From Verrucomicrobiota bacterium (GTDB lineage Bacteria > Verrucomicrobiota > Verrucomicrobiia > Limisphaerales > JAXMHQ01): DNA of 64,000 nucleotides. Position 1 is the stretch's first letter; every line of letters begins with the position of its first letter. A program made the position numbers and the translations under genes. The notes under the pieces are model-generated. The model worked only from the letters and a program-made list of their open reading frames with translations. It had not been told where the DNA came from and made no database searches. Location: NCBI GenBank assembly GCA_046346665.1, contig JAXMHQ010000027.1:2299-66298 (forward strand), in the 5' to 3' direction. Shown here one piece after another: positions 8,109 through 34,715 of this stretch.

Positions 8109-8265
8109 AACCACGGATGGACACGGATCAACACGGATGAAAAAGGCTTTGACGCGAATTCTCCCGAATTTTCGTTAATTGGGAAAAATTAGCGGTAATT
8201 CGCGTCAATTCGCGTCAAAAAGGCCTCCGTTTTTCATCCGTGTCCATCCGTGTCCATCCGTGGTT
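8109..8265. repeat. Nested palindromic element (ATCCGTG-type plus AATTCGCGTCA-type modules) in the tig/bioD divergent region
   Basis: The left arm AACCACGGATGGACACGGAT...TGACGCGAATT is mirrored by the right arm AATTCGCGTCA...ATCCGTGTCCATCCGTGTCCATCCGTGGTT. Confidence 0.8.
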
Positions 8266-8319: not shown

Positions 8320-9006
8320 GTGAACCCAACGACCCTCTTCATCACCGGCACCGACACCGACGCCGGCAAAACGGTCGTCGGCTGCCTGCTCGCCCGGTTT
8401 CTCTCAAACCGCCACCCGCCCCTGGGCGTCTGCAAACCCGTCTGTTCCGGTAATCGCAACGACGCCCGCCACCTGCGCACAGCCGCCGGGGCCACTCAAT
8501 CGCTCGACGAAATAAACCCCTGGCACTTCACCGCCCCGATCGCCCCCGTCCTCGCCGCACGCCGCGAACGCAAATTCGTCCGCCGCCGCGACGTTCTCGC
8601 CCATCTTCGATCGCTCCAGCGCCGGTTTCCCATCCTCATCGTCGAAGGCGCCGGCGGACTGCTCAGCCCGCTCGGCACCGACTTCGATTCGCGCGACCTG
8701 ATCCTCGCCCTGCGCGCCCGGCCAATCCTCGTCTGCCCCGACCGCCTCGGCGCCGTCAACCAGGTCCGCCTCGCCCTCGCCGCCCTCCCGCCCGCCGTCG
8801 CCCGAACAACCCCGGTCGTCCTCTCCGCCTGCCACCCGCCCGATCCCGCCGCGCCTTCCAACGCCCTCCTGCTCCGCGAAATCCTCGGCCCCAACCGGGT
8901 CCACCGCCTCCCGCGCCTGCGCCACCCCCACGACCCCACCCGCCCCGCCCTTCGCCACTTCATCCAAACCCTCGCCACATCCACTCTTAAACTCTTAAAC
9001 TCCTAA
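8320..9006 (+). CDS. bioD: Dethiobiotin synthase
   Basis: GTG start. The N-terminal P-loop LFITGTDTDAGKTVV is typical of BioD. 228 aa. Confidence 0.85.
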   Translation: MNPTTLFITGTDTDAGKTVVGCLLARFLSNRHPPLGVCKPVCSGNRNDARHLRTAAGATQSLDEINPWHFTAPIAPVLAARRERKFVRRRDVLAHLRSLQRRFPILIVEGAGGLLSPLGTDFDSRDLILALRARPILVCPDRLGAVNQVRLALAALPPAVARTTPVVLSACHPPDPAAPSNALLLREILGPNRVHRLPRLRHPHDPTRPALRHFIQTLATSTLKLLNS

Positions 9007-27289: not shown

Positions 27290-27691
27290 ATGCCTGGCAC
27301 GCCAAGGATCACTGAAACCGAGTGGGAAATCATGCGGGTGGTGTGGCAAACACATCCTATCGCCGCGTCGGCGATCGTCGATCGGCTTGCGGCGCAGGAT
27401 CCGACCTGGCATCCGAAAACGGTTCGCACCCTCCTCAACCGTTTGCTCCGCAAGAAGGCGCTGCGTCACCAGGTCCGCGGCCGCGCCTATCTTTATGAAC
27501 CTTGCGTCAGCGAAGCCGAATGCGCCGCGGCGGCCAGCGAATCGTTTCTCGACCGGGTCTTTGGCGGATCCATGAAACCGATGCTCGCGTATTTCGTCGA
27601 AGCCCGCCGCCTCACGAGGGAGGACCTGAAGGAACTTCGGAATCTGTTGGATGCTCCAAATCCCAAGCCCAGGAGAAAGACATGCAAATGA
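27290..27691 (+). CDS. blaI: BlaI/MecI/CopY-family transcriptional repressor
   Basis: ITETEWEIMRVVW...TVRTLLNRLLRKKAL is the penicillinase-repressor winged helix. The SD sequence AAAGAGG lies 6 nt upstream of the ATG at 27290. Confidence 0.85.
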   Translation: MPGTPRITETEWEIMRVVWQTHPIAASAIVDRLAAQDPTWHPKTVRTLLNRLLRKKALRHQVRGRAYLYEPCVSEAECAAAASESFLDRVFGGSMKPMLAYFVEARRLTREDLKELRNLLDAPNPKPRRKTCK

Positions 27692-30600
27692 TGGAAATCG
27701 CGCCGTTTTTGGTGGGAATCGGCCGCTGCTCGCTCCAGGCCGGGGCGCTGGTGCTGATGGTTCTGCTTGTGCAATGGCTGTTGCGCCGGCGGCTCTCGCC
27801 CAGGTGGCGCTGCGCGCTCTGGCTGCTGGTGGCCGGCCGGCTGATGCTCCCCGTGTCGCTGAGCAGCAGCTTCAGCCTGTTCAATCTCGTCCCGCAATCG
27901 CCCCCTCCGCCCGCACCCTCAACGAGGGCCCCGGCCGATGGGGCCGGATATCGCCCTGCGGTAATGGATTTCTCCGCCCCGAAAATCGAAACCATCCCCC
28001 GTTTCGCGGCGGAACCGTTGCTGCCGCCCGCGATGAAAAACCCCGTCGCGCAGCCTGACCTTGCGACCGGCCATCACCTCCCATGGAACGGGATCCTCTT
28101 CTCCGCCTGGCTGGCCGGCGTGCTGGTTCTGGGCGGCCGGCTGGCGGGATCCACGTTCCGGCTGCGACGCCGCATTTCGACGCTGCCTGCCCTCCTCGAT
28201 CCCGAAGTGGAATCCGTCGTCGAATTGTGCCGCAGGCAAATGGGCATGCGTTCCAGCCCGAGGGTGGTGGAGACCGGGGTGGTGTCCAGCCCGGCCTTGT
28301 ACGGCGTCTTCCGGCCGCGGTTGTTGTTGCCGCCGGGCATTGCCGGCCGGTTCACATCCCGGGAGTTGAGATTCATCTTCCTCCACGAATTCGCTCACCT
28401 CAAACGTCGGGACCTGCTCGTGCAATGGGTGTTCGCAACGCTCCAGATCCTGCACTGGTTCAACCCGCTGGTCTGGCTCGCGTTCGCCCGCTGGCGCGCC
28501 GACCGTGAGCTGGCCTGCGACGCGCTTGTTCTGGAAACCGGCGGGGAGGGACAGAATCGTGACTATGGCCGGACGATCCTGCACCTGCTGGAAAGCCTTC
28601 CCGGGCGGGCGCCGACGGCCGGGACGGTGGGCATCCTGGAGGACAAACAACAATTGCGGCGGCGCATCCAGGAAATCGCCCGATTCAAACCCGCCACCCG
28701 CGGTTCCCTGCTCGCCATCTTCCTGCTTGCCGCCATTGCCGTCGGCTGCCTCACCGATGCCAGGAGCCGGTCCACATCGCCCGCGGCAAAACCGCACGCG
28801 GCGCTTCCGCTCCCGCTGGATCTGACCCGTTATCAGCTGCCGTGGATGGTCAACTTTGCCCAAATCACCAATATCGCCGCGCATCAGACGCTGGACGGAC
28901 TCCCGTTCAACACCGACGGCAACGCCGTTCTCTACGGACAAGGCTGCGAAATGCGGTCGCGCAACGTCTATCCCCGCCAACTCGAAGGCATCCGGGTCGG
29001 CTGCGCCTTCGCCGAGCTGCACCTGGTGCACTATGGGATCTGGCTGGAAATGGACGGATCCGAACTGGCCCTTATCCGGCTGAATTACGCGGATGGAACC
29101 CACGCAGAGTTGCCCATGATCTACGGGGTGCACTTCAGGGACTGGCTGCGCCAGCCAACCGAAGAAAAAGAGACGGTATCGGACCCGGACACCAAGATTT
29201 GTTTCCGCTTTCCCCAGGCCGAAGGCGGCACCCGGCTCTTCAAGACGAAATTGCTGAACCCCCAACCGAAAAAAATCGTGGAATCGATCGACGTCCTTTC
29301 CACCGGCCATTTCGGCTCCTACGTCCTGGTCGCCGCGACAGTCGCGGCCAAGGATTCCTCACGCCCGATCACGCCTGGCCTGCCCTGGCTGCCGGATCGC
29401 CATTTCGACGGAACCCTAGCCGTGCGGGTCGTGGACCAGGACAACGGTTTGCCCATTGCGGGAGCCCTGGCATTGAATGCGATGGCGGCCGCCGCCCCGG
29501 CAAACTGGTCGCCGCTGTTCTATTCCGATACGAACGGGGTCGGGAAAATCCACTTTCCTGTCGGCCACACCGACATGATTTCAGTCCAGGTGCAGAAGGA
29601 CGGATATCAGCCGGCCTCCGTCGGGTGGCAGAACGAGGCCATACCCGCGCAATACACGATCCGGCTTTCGAAGAACCCTGTTTCCCCCGCCGCGGGCGCG
29701 GAATCGCAGGAGCCGCTGTGCCTGGATATCCGGCGATTTTACCATGATTTGATGAGCCGTCCGGAGGATCCGCTGAAGGCGTTTGGCGGACGGCAGGTGA
29801 TTGACGGGCTGCCTTTCCAGCTCGATGGCGAAGCGATGCTGTTCAGCACGTCTTCTTCCGAAACGGACCTGCCTTTGGAGCTGTCAGGCATTCGCATTGA
29901 CCGCAGGTTCGACGAACTCGACCTGATCGATTACGCCGGCTGGCCCGATGTTGACGGGGAAACCGTGGCGTTCATCCGGTTGAACTACGCCGACGGAACC
30001 CAGCATGATTTCCCAATTCTGTACGGAGTGCACGTGCGCGATTGGTTCCAGATGCCGTCGGAGGAAAAGGAGATCCTGACAGACCCGGACACCAAGGTCT
30101 GCTGGCGCCGCCCGCCGTTGTATTTCAAAGCTCCCATCCGCATCTTCAAAAGCCGGCTGCTCAATCCGCATCCGGAGAAGGTTGCCTCCACCATGGACGT
30201 CATTTCGGCGAAGCATCGGTCCACTTACACGCTGGTCGCCGCGACCGTGGCGAATCGTGATCCGAACCGCCCGGTGACGCCGCCCGCCCCGCCGCTGGTG
30301 CCGGACCGGCCGTTTGACGCGGCGGTCGTCATCCAGGTGCTCAACGACCAGACCGGCCAGCCGATCCCGGACGTGGTGCTGAGCCCCTATTTCACGGTGG
30401 ATGATGAGGGCATTGTCGGCAATCCAATCAAGACTTCCGCCGACGGCATTGGCCGGATGCGCTACCCAAAGGCCCGAACCGCATCGCTGAGTGTGACTTC
30501 CGTGTCGGAAGGGTATTCAACCATGGGCGCCAACTGGCAGGCGGGATCCATCCCCGGCGAGATCACGTTTCGGCTCACTCCGGAGAAGGTCTACACCGGC

Positions 30601-33117
30601 AGGATCAGCGGCGTCGTGGTCGATGAAAAGGGCCGGCCGGTCCTCAACGCCACCGTTCGCGCCGAAGCATATAATTTTGGCTACCCAAACGCCCCGTTCG
30701 TCCGTCTGCCGAGGGCGGCCATCCAGACGGATGGGGAGGGGCGGTGGACACTGACGGGCTTCCCGGAGAAGTTCCAGGACTTCGGATTGACGGTCCATTG
30801 CCAGGGCTATCCCGAACTGACCTTCCTGGCCGACGGCCCGATCGATCGCGGCATCATCGGCAAGCACGTCAGCACCGCGGATTTCTGGTCGGGCAAAGCC
30901 GTGCTGCAACTGGAGCGGGGCGCCGAATTATCCGGCGCCGTGCGTGACATTGAGGGCAAACCCGTGACCAATGCCGTGGCCTACCTCGGATTCAACCGCG
31001 TTGGCAACGCCTCGATGACAGCGAGGACCGATGCCACAGGCCGTTTTACGTTGAGCGCCTTAAAACTGGGGGATGACTATCTCACGATCACGGCCGGAGG
31101 CCTCAGCCCGCATTACCAAATGATTAAGATTGCTTCGACCAATCCTCCCCTGGACCTGGTCCTCAAGCCGGCCCGGGCGATTCGCGGGCGGGTGGTGGAC
31201 TCCGCGGGCCAGCCGGTGCCCGGAGCGAGCGTGATCTACGACGGTTTAAACAGCGGGATGGTCCGGATGGAGCACCGGGAGGAGTGGCTATCGCGAACCG
31301 ATGCGGAGGGCAGGTTCAGCTGGGACTCGGCACCCGCACCTGCGTTTCTTCTGAATGTCTCTAAACCGGGTTACATGGCACTCCTCTGGTCAACCGTTCC
31401 GGCAGAGATCACGAATGAAATCGCGCTCAAGCTGGCACCACCTTTGAAAATCCACGGATCGGTCATCGACGCCGACACCGGGGAACCCATCGGCAGCTTC
31501 CGCGTCACGCCAGGCTGGCCCCAAAACGGATTGGCGCAGGTCCGCCTGCAGGAGGAGCAGGGAAAAACATTTTCCGCGGGGCGCTACGAACTCACGCTCG
31601 ACCAGCCGCTGGTGATCAGCACCTCGCCTTACGACTACGTCCTCCAGATAAGCGCCGAGGGCTACGCTCCCGTGCTGTCACCCTTGATCCGGCCGGATGC
31701 CGGCGATGCCCCATTTGACGCGAAGCTCAAGAAAACCCCCATGATCGATGGCCGAATCCTGGATTCGCAAGGCAATCCGATGGCGTCTGCCTCCGTCCAA
31801 ATCGCCGGGCCGGAGGACTACCTGCAATTGTCGGGTACGCGAATCGTGAATCAAGGCAACCAGGCAACCTCTATCCAATCCGATACCAAAGGCCGCTTCA
31901 AGCTGGCGCCGCGCATCGGCAGTTATGCGCTGATCGCGGCTGCAGATTCCGGTTTTGGCATCGTTCAGAGCGATGACATCTCGAACCGGGTGGACCTGGT
32001 GGTGAAGCCGTGGGGCCGAATTGAAGGCGTCCTGCTCAAAAACGGCCGGCCGGCCGGCAATGAGTCCGTTTACTATTTCGCCGGGGCCAGCACATCGCAG
32101 CAAATCAATACGACGCCGGCTTCCACCGATGCCGAAGGCCGGTTCGTCCTCGAACACGTCCCGCCGGGCGACATCAAACTTCAATTGAAACAACCCCTGT
32201 CCGAACGGTCCTGGTCGTATCTCCCCCTGCAAAGCCTGGTCGTGGATGCCGGCGCGACAAACCGGGTGACCGTCACGCTCGAAGGCCGCGACGTGATCGC
32301 ACACCTGGCGCTTCCGGCCGACCTCACCGGCGACCTCGGCGCCCTCGAGGGCAATATCATGCTCACGCCGGACATCACCAATCGCCCGGCGGTGCCGAAG
32401 GATACCCCGGATCCCGGACGCTGGATGCGCGACTGGCTGAAGACCGCTGCGGGGCGGGATTACCAGGAAGCCATGAACCGGCGCCGATTTCTGCGGAGGG
32501 ATTCGGACGGCACGTTGCGCGGCAGCAGTGTAACGCCTGGAAGTTATCACGTGACCGGGTCCTTTTATCAAAACGGATCCACCCTGGCGCAGTTGGAGAC
32601 CACAAATGTAGTGATTCCCGGCCCCGGCGGGGGAGAGGAAGACAAGCCGCTTGATTTGGGCACCTTCAAAGTCAAAGCCCTGAAGACACTCAAAGTGGGG
32701 GCGATGGCTCCTGATTTTCATGTTAAAACCCTCGACGGCGCGCCGCTCTCCTTGTCGCAATTCCGGGGCAAATACGTCCTGCTCGATTTCTGGGCGGTCT
32801 GGTGCGGACCCTGCGTGGCCGAAACGCCGCACCTGAAAGCGGTCTATGATGCGTTCCAAAAGAATGACCGCTTCGCAATGGTCAGCCTCAGCCTGGATCC
32901 GGACGTGGAAACGCCAAAAAAATTCTCACGGGAGAAGCAAACCGCCTGGATCCAGGGCTTCCTTGGGGAATGGTCCAAGGATACGTTGACCGCCGATTAC
33001 GGTGTTTACAGCATTCCATCGATCTTCCTGGTCGGCCCGGACGGCCGGATCGTGGCGATGGGCCTTCGTGGACCAGCCATTATGGCAGCGGTGGAGGCGG
33101 CGCTCAATGCCCGCTAA
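27682..33117 (+). CDS. Giant BlaR1/M56-peptidase sensor fused to repeated extracytoplasmic domains and a C-terminal TlpA/ResA-like thioredoxin
   Basis: The start MQMMEIAPFLVG overlaps the blaI stop. M56 zinc motif FLHEFAHLKRRD. A TM segment follows at about aa 390. Then come two units of about 300 aa, at least six CarboxypepD_reg-like beta-sandwich signatures (for example IRGRVVDSAGQPVPGASV), and a C-terminal FWAVWCGPC thioredoxin motif. Confidence 0.85.
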   Translation: MQMMEIAPFLVGIGRCSLQAGALVLMVLLVQWLLRRRLSPRWRCALWLLVAGRLMLPVSLSSSFSLFNLVPQSPPPPAPSTRAPADGAGYRPAVMDFSAPKIETIPRFAAEPLLPPAMKNPVAQPDLATGHHLPWNGILFSAWLAGVLVLGGRLAGSTFRLRRRISTLPALLDPEVESVVELCRRQMGMRSSPRVVETGVVSSPALYGVFRPRLLLPPGIAGRFTSRELRFIFLHEFAHLKRRDLLVQWVFATLQILHWFNPLVWLAFARWRADRELACDALVLETGGEGQNRDYGRTILHLLESLPGRAPTAGTVGILEDKQQLRRRIQEIARFKPATRGSLLAIFLLAAIAVGCLTDARSRSTSPAAKPHAALPLPLDLTRYQLPWMVNFAQITNIAAHQTLDGLPFNTDGNAVLYGQGCEMRSRNVYPRQLEGIRVGCAFAELHLVHYGIWLEMDGSELALIRLNYADGTHAELPMIYGVHFRDWLRQPTEEKETVSDPDTKICFRFPQAEGGTRLFKTKLLNPQPKKIVESIDVLSTGHFGSYVLVAATVAAKDSSRPITPGLPWLPDRHFDGTLAVRVVDQDNGLPIAGALALNAMAAAAPANWSPLFYSDTNGVGKIHFPVGHTDMISVQVQKDGYQPASVGWQNEAIPAQYTIRLSKNPVSPAAGAESQEPLCLDIRRFYHDLMSRPEDPLKAFGGRQVIDGLPFQLDGEAMLFSTSSSETDLPLELSGIRIDRRFDELDLIDYAGWPDVDGETVAFIRLNYADGTQHDFPILYGVHVRDWFQMPSEEKEILTDPDTKVCWRRPPLYFKAPIRIFKSRLLNPHPEKVASTMDVISAKHRSTYTLVAATVANRDPNRPVTPPAPPLVPDRPFDAAVVIQVLNDQTGQPIPDVVLSPYFTVDDEGIVGNPIKTSADGIGRMRYPKARTASLSVTSVSEGYSTMGANWQAGSIPGEITFRLTPEKVYTGRISGVVVDEKGRPVLNATVRAEAYNFGYPNAPFVRLPRAAIQTDGEGRWTLTGFPEKFQDFGLTVHCQGYPELTFLADGPIDRGIIGKHVSTADFWSGKAVLQLERGAELSGAVRDIEGKPVTNAVAYLGFNRVGNASMTARTDATGRFTLSALKLGDDYLTITAGGLSPHYQMIKIASTNPPLDLVLKPARAIRGRVVDSAGQPVPGASVIYDGLNSGMVRMEHREEWLSRTDAEGRFSWDSAPAPAFLLNVSKPGYMALLWSTVPAEITNEIALKLAPPLKIHGSVIDADTGEPIGSFRVTPGWPQNGLAQVRLQEEQGKTFSAGRYELTLDQPLVISTSPYDYVLQISAEGYAPVLSPLIRPDAGDAPFDAKLKKTPMIDGRILDSQGNPMASASVQIAGPEDYLQLSGTRIVNQGNQATSIQSDTKGRFKLAPRIGSYALIAAADSGFGIVQSDDISNRVDLVVKPWGRIEGVLLKNGRPAGNESVYYFAGASTSQQINTTPASTDAEGRFVLEHVPPGDIKLQLKQPLSERSWSYLPLQSLVVDAGATNRVTVTLEGRDVIAHLALPADLTGDLGALEGNIMLTPDITNRPAVPKDTPDPGRWMRDWLKTAAGRDYQEAMNRRRFLRRDSDGTLRGSSVTPGSYHVTGSFYQNGSTLAQLETTNVVIPGPGGGEEDKPLDLGTFKVKALKTLKVGAMAPDFHVKTLDGAPLSLSQFRGKYVLLDFWAVWCGPCVAETPHLKAVYDAFQKNDRFAMVSLSLDPDVETPKKFSREKQTAWIQGFLGEWSKDTLTADYGVYSIPSIFLVGPDGRIVAMGLRGPAIMAAVEAALNAR

Positions 33118-33120
33118 GCC

Positions 33121-33306
33121 GTCTCTATAAAGTTCAAAAAAACTCAAACTCACGCAGAGACGCAGAGGACGCAGAGGGCCGCAGCGAAACGGGTCAGACA
33201 AATCGCTCACTAATCGGTGACCCCGAAAGAGCCGCCAGTTCTCTGCGAATCTCTGCGCCCTCTGCGCCTCTGCGTTTATCCCCAGGAAAACCAACTGCAT
33301 AGAGAC
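33121..33306. mobile_element. 186-bp MITE-like palindromic element (CGCAGAG-type core)
   Basis: Terminal inverted repeats are GTCTCTAT (33121-33128) and ATAGAGAC (33299-33306). Internal inverted arms are CGCAGAGACGCAGAGGACGCAGAGGGC and GCCCTCTGCGCCTCTGCG. The element is flanked by GCTAAGCC (33113-33120) and GGCTAAGCC (33307-33315). Confidence 0.6.
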
Positions 33307-33315
33307 GGCTAAGCC

Positions 33316-33501
33316 GGAACGATTCAGTTGAAAAGGCTTTTAACCACGGATAAACACGGATGGACACGGATAAAAAACCGCCGCACTCCTAGAATCAAAC
33401 CCAAACCAAACGGTGAGTTGAAAGCACCCCCGGAAACTGGCTTTCACCATTCTGTATCCGTGTGAATCCGTGTTCATCCGTGGTTTAAACTGAATCGTTC
33501 C
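33316..33501. mobile_element. 186-bp MITE-like palindromic element (ATCCGTG-type core)
   Basis: 14-bp terminal inverted repeats are GGAACGATTCAGTT (33316-33329) and AACTGAATCGTTCC (33488-33501). Internal arms are AACCACGGATAAACACGGATGGACACGGAT and ATCCGTGTGAATCCGTGTTCATCCGTGGTT. The element is flanked by GGCTAAGCC (33307-33315) and GGCTAAGAC (33502-33510). Confidence 0.6.
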
Positions 33502-33514
33502 GGCTAAGACCCCT

Positions 33515-33565
33515 GCCCGCGGCTGGTGCGTCCTTCGCGCCTGCGGAATAAAAACAAAGCTCTGA
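33515..33565 (+). pseudogene. Orphan 3' fragment of a DUF2892 gene (encodes ARGWCVLRACGIKTKL-stop)
   Basis: The first 32 bp are identical to 26982-27013, inside the intact DUF2892 gene. The following codons still encode GIKT(K/R)L-stop but with different nucleotides. No upstream coding part is present. Confidence 0.7.
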
Positions 33566-33617: not shown

Positions 33618-34715
33618 ATGGGCACTCACCAGGCCTCGCTCCTGCTCCCATCCACCGGCGTCTACAAGGACCTCGGCCCCGCCCTGCTGGACACCCTCCA
33701 GTCCGCAGGCTGGTCCGCCACACTCCGCCCCGCCGCCGATGCCTCGATTCTTGAATCCGACCTGGTGCTCTGCGCCGGACAATGCCGCAACATCGATCGC
33801 CTCGGCAAAATCCTGTCGCGCCGGCGCGGCCGCAAACCGCATGTAATCGCCTGGCAACTGGAACCGCTGCCGCCCGCATCGCTCAGCCCCGAAGGCGAAG
33901 CCGTCGGCTGGAGAGCGAGCGCCTGGGATTGGGGCCGCCTGCCCCGGCCCGCCCGCAAAATCCTCAACGCCCTCGTCCCGTTCCGCACCCGCCTGTTCCG
34001 CGCCCTCCAGCGATCCGCCGCCGCTTCGTACTCCCGCGCCGTCGTTCACGAACCCGGACACCAGGGCTGGGGATCCTACGATCCCGACATCTTCGTCGTC
34101 GCCATGTCGGAATGGCGCTGGATCAAAGCCGCCCACGAACACGGCTGGATCGACCGCCTCTACGCCAGCAACCGCCCCCGGTCCGACTTCCTCCGCAGCC
34201 GCGGCCTCGATGCGCCCGTCGTGCCGGTCGGCTGGCACCGCTCCTGGGGCCGCGACCTCGGGCGGCCGCGCGACATCGACATCCTGTTTCTTGGCAGCGC
34301 CGGCACGGACGCCCGCGGGGATGCCTTGCGCCAATTAGACTCTGAACTGGCCGCGCGCGCGCGGTCGATCACCTTTGCGGAGGGCGCCTACGGCCCCGAT
34401 CGCGAACGCCTGCTCAACCGCGCACGAATCGTCCTGAGCCTCCTCCGCGCCCCGCACGACCTCGCCGGCATGCGCGTGCTCATGGGCCTCGCCTGCGGCG
34501 CGCTCGTCGTGTCGGAGTCCTGCCCCGATACCAACGCCTTCACGCCGGGCGAACATTTCGTCATGGCACCACGCGCGCAGCTCGCGGATTGCCTCTGCCA
34601 TTACCTCGACAACGAACCCGAACGCGCCCGCATCGCCCGACAGGGCTGCGCGTTCGTCAACCGGGAATTGACTCTGGAACGTTCCCTCGCCACGATGCTC
34701 CAGCCTGTCTGCTGA
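33618..34715 (+). CDS. Glycosyltransferase, CgeB / GT1-like C-terminal domain
   Basis: 365 aa. The C-terminal half (DILFLGS...RERLLNRARIVLSL...GMRVLMGLACGALVVSE...G.HFV) resembles the Glyco_trans_1_2/CgeB family. The N-terminal half was not recognised. Confidence 0.55.
   Translation: MGTHQASLLLPSTGVYKDLGPALLDTLQSAGWSATLRPAADASILESDLVLCAGQCRNIDRLGKILSRRRGRKPHVIAWQLEPLPPASLSPEGEAVGWRASAWDWGRLPRPARKILNALVPFRTRLFRALQRSAAASYSRAVVHEPGHQGWGSYDPDIFVVAMSEWRWIKAAHEHGWIDRLYASNRPRSDFLRSRGLDAPVVPVGWHRSWGRDLGRPRDIDILFLGSAGTDARGDALRQLDSELAARARSITFAEGAYGPDRERLLNRARIVLSLLRAPHDLAGMRVLMGLACGALVVSESCPDTNAFTPGEHFVMAPRAQLADCLCHYLDNEPERARIARQGCAFVNRELTLERSLATMLQPVC

Follow-up and report, generated by a model that had tools for sequence, protein, structure and literature searches.

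Two adjoining palindromes of a Verrucomicrobiota genome are probably miniature transposons of one, apparently undescribed, superfamily

Why do two different palindromes of the same length lie side by side behind the stop codon of a single gene? This question is raised by a stretch of 64,000 nucleotides from a Verrucomicrobiota bacterium of the order Limisphaerales (contig JAXMHQ010000027.1 of assembly GCA_046346665.1, positions 2,299 to 66,298; hereafter the window), in which the two palindromes, designated A and B, stand between a large BlaR1-type gene and a glycosyltransferase gene. We consider that A and B are probably non-autonomous DNA transposons, that is, MITEs (miniature inverted-repeat transposable elements), of one superfamily. 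The coordinates of their parts, and of the other loci discussed, are collected in Table 1.

Two multi-copy elements with related ends

A preliminary description of this locus gave, in order, GCTAAGCC, a palindrome of 186 bp, GGCTAAGCC, another palindrome of 186 bp and GGCTAAGAC. Both palindromes are real and both are present in multiple copies in the genome of the window (G000; 70 contigs, 97.4% complete). Their equal length stands, but their borders have to be shifted outward by 3 bp, to 192 bp each, the GCC/GGC at the edges being inverted repeat. Each element is bounded by terminal inverted repeats (TIRs) of 17 bp, GCCGTCTCTATGCAGTT in family A and GCCGGAACGATTCAGTT in family B, which have the same letter at 12 of their 17 positions and are of the general form GCCG...C.AT.CAGTT; these 17-bp TIRs are present in all full copies. 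The 8-bp TIR that had been given to the first element is a mutated copy of the 17-bp family TIR, with AA in place of GC.

Inside the TIRs, the repeat finder delimits inverted arms of 37 nt in A (84% complementary) and 40 nt in B (85%), built from tandem words: ACGCAGAG with a spacing of 8-9 bp in A and CACGGATnnn with a spacing of 10 bp in B. Folded as single-stranded DNA, each element forms a single long hairpin (-48 kcal/mol, z = -7.4 for A; -52 kcal/mol, z = -9.6 for B) and none of the shuffled sequences folds as stably as A or B. Neither element has an open reading frame (ORF) of its own.

The A interior occurs in about 10 copies in G000, with 74-95% identity and all of 191-193 bp, 7 of which have A-type TIRs at both ends, and B occurs in about 11 full copies of 89-97% identity, ten of them of 191-193 bp and one of 200 bp. 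Taken together, 20 of the 21 full copies measure 191-193 bp in unrelated contexts, and the spacing from left to right TIR start is 174-176 in nearly all pairs. Three copies are hybrids (contigs C23, C25 and C58), in which one end is of A type and the other of B type; in other genomes, too, there are elements that combine a left TIR like that of A with a right TIR like that of B.

One A copy of G000 (C11:76625-77085) is itself interrupted by a MITE of about 270 bp with the TIR GAACCCATTCATAAATAGGCAAGGGGTGCG and a TA duplication, which looks like a third, IS630-like family and for which the intact A copies provide the empty site.

A common backbone with a fixed apex

The interiors found behind the same ends vary: besides the word arrays of A and B we found four GC-rich REP-like hairpins, GGTAGGGC-type palindromes and arrays of CACAGAT, CGCGAAA or GTTGAAWG words. 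What recurs among them is a 12-nt motif at the hairpin apex. Of 46 elements of 180-205 bp that were not selected, 14 have a motif like AACCAAACGGTG with at most 2 mismatches; for the reversed control the figure is 2 of 46. Among 19 aligned elements with unrelated arms, A and B included, the motif starts at position 91±1 in 15 and at 89-93 in 16 (mean 91.9, sd 4.3), and 89-92 nt remain to its right (sd 1.1); as these 19 elements were picked for having the motif, its position is informative and its presence is not, so that only the 14 of 46 is an unselected count. The backbone common to A and B is thus 17 + ~73 + 12 + ~73 + 17 nt, and the two elements differ only in their two arms of ~73 nt. The shared backbone accounts for their equal length. 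The arms themselves appear to be an exchangeable stem filling, drawn from palindromic repeat families that are common in the host.

Lengths of 190-195 bp are also found in 34 of 72 distinct elements of other genomes, with several interior types. The size constraint proposed earlier therefore holds as a mode of about 192 bp and fails as a law: lengths of 144, 164, 184 and 203 bp exist in the superfamily, and the 164-bp and 144-bp families led us to reject a universal length rule. The 164-bp family is represented by about 40 copies in one genome (G257), with 87-100% identity and derivatives of 49, 85, 122 and 138 bp. At least 10 copies of the 144-bp family, 98-100% identical, are present in another (G444), the assembly of which is broken at them and has many contig ends there. 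Derivatives shortened by deletion (49-138 bp), and likewise the young family of nearly identical copies, are behaviour typical of MITEs. The smallest derivative (G257:C23:48141-48189) consists of two TIRs and 15 bp, with CTG as left flank and TAA as right flank.

It could be argued that A and B are unrelated palindromes that have the same length by coincidence, since the superfamily includes several lengths and since the internal segments of A and B differ in length when split by their word arrays. The related TIRs, the hybrids, the apex motif at position 91 or 92 in both elements and the modal length in other genomes make this extremely unlikely. The TIRs, the hybrids and the apex motif also contradict the earlier statement that A and B are unrelated in sequence, and support the common mobilisation that had been suggested for them.

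Target site, duplication and tandem arrays

In the 64-kb window GGCTAAG is found at two places only, both of them element borders, and about two occurrences would be expected by chance. The flanking GCTAAG had been proposed as the duplicated target; only its TAA proved to be a direct repeat (a 5-bp duplication, CTAAG, being possible), and the remaining letters belong to the TIR tip. In G000 the same TWA triplet flanks both sides of 9 copies, and the reverse complement is found in 1. Among the 72 distinct elements of other genomes we counted 28 identical pairs (TTA 14, TAA 5, TCA 5 and TGA 4) versus 2 reverse-complement pairs, and the left triplet is preceded by C in 59 and the right triplet followed by G in 60. 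We interpret the triplets as a target-site duplication of TNA inside CTNAG, because an extended palindrome would put TTA opposite TAA. Whether 3 bp or 5 bp are duplicated cannot be told, as the target is palindromic and its outer C and G are symmetric. Other copies thus have CTNAG flanks and a near-constant length, rather than bare borders and variable lengths.

The G...C tips of the elements, together with TNA and the flanking bases, restore a full CTNAG at both junctions, so that every insertion would provide two fresh targets and tandem arrays recur. CT[AG]AG sites are scarce in G000 (4315 on both strands). At tandem junctions, in the window and in other pairs, the spacing from TIR to TIR start is 20 (17 + 3), with one common TNA between the elements. 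Two insertions into one short target, as had been supposed for the window, are supported by these arrays and by the direct TNA flanks. In the sequence of events that we envisage, the enzyme would cut the target with a 3-nt stagger and join the element in, each insertion leaving two new targets; a first element would have entered the CTAAG that holds the TAA stop of the upstream gene, and the other would have entered one of the rebuilt sites, to give stop/TAA-A-TAA-B-TAA.

One paralogous empty site agrees with insertion: when the sequences on either side of the A copy at C34:105338 are joined, they align with C14:25675-25755 through the junction (80% over 81 bp), where the empty site reads CAGAG and the filled site CTGAG. 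A second candidate, C15 versus C70, was not convincing.

As the preliminary description had pointed out, the target includes the stop codon of the giant gene upstream, the left TAA being the stop of the BlaR1-type ORF. Of 23 copies, 9 have a duplicated triplet that serves as stop codon of an ORF (85 codons or more, on the appropriate strand), compared with a share of 17.5% among all CT[AG]AG sites (binomial estimate, p ~0.01). The excess is modest and would be expected if intragenic insertions are lost, with stop codons supplying many of the TNA sites at gene ends, which are few.

The position at stop codons, the intergenic sites, the very stable folds and the conservation of ends and apex around variable stems would also suit a structured RNA or regulatory hairpin that mainly serves the host, for instance as RNase III site, transcript stabiliser or terminator between genes, and in which mobility would be secondary or long past. 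We judge this unlikely. No Rfam family is found at its gathering score, the sole listing being a match, far below threshold, to the precursor of a plant miRNA (24.9 bits, E = 0.0086, where the gathering score is 184) that fits any long hairpin; no terminator-like site was found; the copies lie in both orientations; the enrichment at stop codons is what loss of intragenic insertions would leave; and the duplications, the tandem arrays, the derivatives shortened by deletion and the bursts of nearly identical copies are the behaviour of transposons.

Distribution across the order

Of 301 genomes taken as a sample of the order, 168, from 100 of 143 genera, have the B-type TIR GCCGGAACGATNCAGTT with at most 1 mismatch; the reversed pattern used as control matches almost nowhere. 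The A-type TIR is found in 43 of the 301, with intermediates such as GCCGTATCGATGCAGTT. The maximum in a single genome is 135 matches. Outside the order, most of the genomes sampled from the phylum have no match or a single one, but two genomes of another order have 13 and 26.

Search for the transposase

We looked for a parent element among 15 genomes (G000, the 8 genomes richest in copies and 6 others) with six transposase models and Y1_Tnp. In G000, PF13359, PF07592 and PF13358 gave no match (nor did PF07592 in the control genomes), the PF01609 insertion sequences (ISs) have other ends (1219 bp with TIR CAGGGCTCACGCATTAAAA; ~1330 bp with TIR GCCACTAGTGTCCGGTTAAA), and contig C68 has IS5 fragments only. 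In the eight highest-copy genomes no PF13586, PF13358, PF07592 or PF01609 locus has the TIR; with NF033563 and PF13359 there was no match. The PF01609 loci of G444 and G312, the PF13358 loci across six genomes and the ISAzo13 loci (PF07592) of G272 and G169 likewise are without it. The IS630 copies (PF13358) of G444 and other genomes have other ends, and several high-copy genomes have neither the IS630 nor the ISAzo13 family.

Candidate parents suggested by the placing of TIRs were rejected. The sole TIR near an IS, on G257:C41, lies outside that IS; a weak 3.1-kb TIR pair at G000:C1:36437-39548 encloses ordinary genes; and a TIR pair 3.6 kb apart on G444:C26 corresponds to two separate MITEs. 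In G286 three TIR matches, all at contig ends and with the same 37 bp inward, could be read as an IS end, which was not extendable in genome or metagenome contigs.

Y1_Tnp (IS200/RAYT-type) genes are present in all six genomes tested, 5 in G000 and 2-9 in five other carriers, and the preliminary description had named an IS200/IS605 TnpA-like or RAYT enzyme as a possible cognate. The palindromes would then be REP/REPIN or IS200/IS605-type hairpins that a Y1 (HUH) tyrosine transposase mobilises in single-stranded form; this would agree with their long folds and, for an enzyme reading folded DNA, with the fixed arm length and the conserved apex. The Y1 genes are flanked, however, by other palindromes, e.g. 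AAGCCCTGAAAGGGCG and TTATAGGACTGACCCC, and none adjoins a MITE TIR. Moreover, Y1 transposition, as in IS608 and REPIN biology, is not known to leave direct 3-bp duplications or 17-bp TIRs. A Y1 mover of A and B is accordingly very unlikely.

Own palindromes flank at least three of the Y1 genes of G000 (C22, C19 and C45; e.g. TTATAGGACTGACCCCTTTGCCAAAGGGGTCAGTCCTATAA at C19), and the Y1 genes of this genome are candidates for moving its other repeat families.

According to its duplication and target, the enzyme that moves the superfamily may, as a tentative first choice, be a DDE transposase behaving like those of the IS5 group (IS1031/IS427) or of PIF/Harbinger type. The 3-bp TNA/TWA duplication of the IS5 group is present, and an IS5-like enzyme is ranked first because IS5-type ISs of about 870-960 bp in G257 (C48:~93.2 kb) and G444 (C3:~37.2 kb) share the junction design, with a TNA duplication and G...C tips: the junctions read TTA followed by GAGCC... 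in G257 and TAA followed by GAGC... in G444. Their TIRs are unrelated to those of the MITEs, and no TIR in common with an IS5-family or Harbinger-type element was found at PF01609 or PF13586 loci, PF13359 having none.

The same junctions bear on another possibility, namely that a site-specific endonuclease cutting C^TNAG frees the element with TNA overhangs, which is then ligated into another cut CTNAG. DdeI cuts C^TNAG in this way, leaving 3-nt overhangs, so that the restriction pattern is a known one; the G...C tips always give a full CTNAG at both junctions; and no DDE parent was found in the genomes searched. No special enzyme is needed, however, as ISs of the same clade with an ordinary DDE gene show the same junctions, and cutting and ligation would be deduced from the junctions, no candidate nuclease having been identified. 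We regard this route as highly improbable.

Also unlikely is an enzyme other than the transposases usual for a TNA duplication, which would read the folded hairpin and measure ~90 nt between the TIR stem at its base and the conserved loop at its apex. It would explain why the arm length is kept while the arm sequence is replaced, why no transposase with matching ends is found despite copies of 98-100% identity, and why the ends are conserved across the order.

Several points weigh against the interpretation of A and B as MITEs of one superfamily. Among the 15 genomes, no locus of the IS5/IS4, IS630 and ISAzo13 models (PF01609, PF13586, PF13358, PF07592) carries the TIR, and PF13359 (Harbinger-type) and NF033563 (IS30) have no locus in the genomes searched; even G444, with its near-identical copies, has no transposase locus with the TIR. 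All the genomes compared are drafts, in which a multi-copy parent element could have stayed unassembled. There is no orthologous empty site, the collection holding no close relative of G000, and the one other public contig with the downstream glycosyltransferase gene begins at 33517, about 10 bp past the right TAA, so that it does not cover the insertion site. The ambiguity between 3 bp and 5 bp and the selection of the aligned apex elements, both described above, belong here as well. We nevertheless retain the MITE interpretation as the probable one.

Arms shared with GxxExxY cassettes

Tracing the CACGGAT arms in other genomes, we found one copy that encloses a gene of 136 aa, the product of which is a GxxExxY / PDDEXK_3 protein (TIGR04256, 3e-35; PF13366, 1e-32). 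In G000 all 8 GxxExxY genes lie between inverted arrays of at least 3 tandem words, and each has its own word (CACGGAT, CGCAGAG, CACGGAA, CACAGAG, CGCGAAG, CGCGAAT, CACGAAG and one more), the words fitting CRCRRAD (R = A/G, D = A/G/T). These cassettes begin directly after the upstream stop codon. The B arm has the same word and the same TTTTAACC flank as the cassette at C13:10753-11211, and the A arm the same word and the same flank, GGATAAACGCAGAGGCGCAGAG, as the C2 cassette. The hairpins flanking GxxExxY genes are, however, without TIR or duplication, whereas in A and B the hairpin is cargo inside a TIR-bounded element: the TIR/TNA transposon is the outer layer and the word hairpin is carried as its stem.

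Triple-word arrays number about 277 in G000, many of them being bare hairpins whose loops contain other hairpins. In the window, a bare CACGGAT hairpin without TIRs lies at 8112-8262 (G000:C20:10410-10560), with a CGCGAAT hairpin nested in its loop, and further word arrays lie near 8988 and 18620.

Table 1. Positions of the parts of elements A and B in the window, and of tandem arrays, Y1_Tnp genes and GxxExxY cassettes
Feature	Location	Strand	Remark
Left target half, C + TAA copy	33114..33117	+	TAA 33115-33117 = stop codon
Element A, 192-bp MITE, CGCAGAG-word arms	33118..33309	+	multi-copy, hairpin fold
Left TIR of A, GCCGTCTCTATAAAGTT	33118..33134	+	family consensus GC at 33129-33130, window copy AA
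Left arm of A, tandem ACGCAGAG words	33152..33188	+	repeat finder
Apex motif of A, CACTAATCGGTG	33208..33219	+	begins at element position 91
Right arm of A, CTCTGCG words	33239..33275	+	complementary to left arm of A
Right TIR of A, AACTGCATAGAGACGGC	33293..33309	+	
TAA common to A and B	33310..33312	+	CTAAG with C tip of A and G tip of B
Element B, 192-bp MITE, CACGGAT-word arms	33313..33504	+	multi-copy, hairpin fold
Left TIR of B, GCCGGAACGATTCAGTT	33313..33329	+	
Left arm of B, three CACGGATnnn words, 10-bp period	33338..33377	+	repeat finder
Apex motif of B, AACCAAACGGTG	33404..33415	+	begins at element position 92
Right arm of B, ATCCGTG words	33450..33489	+	repeat finder
Right TIR of B, AACTGAATCGTTCCGGC	33488..33504	+	
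Right target half, TAA copy + G	33505..33508	+	TAA 33505-33507
Tandem array	window		A then B, one common TAA
Tandem array	G000:C28:7610-7998		B then A
Tandem array	G000:C1:167970		B stump then A
Tandem array, other genome	G024		
Tandem array, other genome	G257:C21		
Tandem array, other genome	G127		triple
Tandem array, other genome	G187		pair
Y1_Tnp (IS200/RAYT-type) gene	G000:C22:57920-58258		
Y1_Tnp gene	G000:C45:3609-3938		
Y1_Tnp gene	G000:C19:22359-22691		
Y1_Tnp gene	G000:C34:96414-96740		
Y1_Tnp gene	G000:C23:59017-59340		
GxxExxY cassette	G000:C13:10753-11211		
GxxExxY cassette	G000:C2:~50.6-51.3 kb		
GxxExxY cassette	G000:C5:67276-67944		
GxxExxY cassette	G000:C19:~72.9-73.5 kb		
GxxExxY cassette	G000:C69:63139-63647		
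GxxExxY cassette	G000:C35:30017-30569		
GxxExxY cassette	G000:C1:~180.1-180.7 kb		
GxxExxY cassette	G000:C19:~3.6-4.2 kb		

Relation to known elements and significance

The Correia elements (CREE/NEMIS) of Neisseria are intergenic, TIR-bounded, multi-copy hairpins of ~100-160 bp with a short fixed TA duplication, found in one genus, and they are not known to have a cognate transposase. A and B resemble them in being small, intergenic, TIR-bounded, multi-copy hairpins with a short fixed duplication and no known transposase, but their superfamily duplicates TNA inside CTNAG and spans an order and parts of a class, and its fixed apex position and swapped arms are features of its own. MITEs of the IS5 superfamily (bacterial derivatives of the IS1031/IS427 group; eukaryotic Tourist elements of PIF/Harbinger) have TIRs and a 3-bp TNA/TWA duplication. 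A and B are like these in duplication, in the presence of TIRs and in the junction of TNA with G...C tips, whereas the TIR interiors past the tip are unrelated. With IS630- and ISAzo13-derived MITEs they have a TNA duplication of 3 bp and the form of a hairpin in common, but the IS630 and ISAzo13 loci of the carrier genomes have other ends. They differ from REP/REPIN-RAYT systems, as the A and B palindromes do not flank Y1 genes and do have a duplication. Drosophila foldback elements have an interior made of short tandem repeats. DTC84 of the clam Donax trunculus is a MITE with short tandem repeats inside (PMC3879986). The tandem-repeat interior of A and B is alike, but these elements are eukaryotic and unrelated in sequence, so that the likeness is one of analogy only.

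A literature search yielded no description of this MITE superfamily. The pair in the window represents a known kind of element, the MITE, in what is apparently an undescribed superfamily, order-wide and with no known parent. The superfamily is solid and of unusual geometry: its target is rebuilt on insertion, its arms are exchangeable and the position of its apex is strikingly fixed. What looked like a local oddity becomes an element class with defined ends, target and geometry, which annotators can look for in a phylum that has been little studied, and the superfamily accounts for the tandem palindromes that recur in Verrucomicrobiota assemblies, and for contig breaks and spuriously extended ORFs there. 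The rule behind the arrays is simple, in that a MITE which restores its own target thereby builds them. TIR elements are also linked to the word hairpins that surround GxxExxY genes, as such hairpins ride inside the transposon. A concrete and testable puzzle is posed by the enzyme that was not found and by the fixed layout of 90 + 12 + 90; a hairpin-reading enzyme, if true, would be an undescribed mobilisation system of Verrucomicrobiota. G444, with its near-identical copies of the 144-bp family, is the best genome in which to seek an active enzyme.

Gene context and neighbouring repeats

The ORF upstream of A (27502-33117, 1871 aa) terminates at the left TAA and, according to Pfam, encodes a BlaR1-type M56 sensor with Peptidase_M56, CarboxypepD_reg repeats and a C-terminal AhpC/TSA domain. 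A gene for a BlaI-type repressor precedes it. The next gene downstream of B is that of the glycosyltransferase, which starts at 33618.

A GC-rich palindromic repeat of about 100 bp, GTAGCCGCAAAAGGTAGGGTCGGCGCGCTGCGCCGACC...GCGGCTACGGTTTATGTTAAACCGCTATAGC, was noticed at four places in G000 (C15:~87.5 kb, C18:~0.55-0.67 kb, C70:~127.8 kb and C19:~6.8 kb), and at two places a MITE of the superfamily follows its CTATA end immediately.

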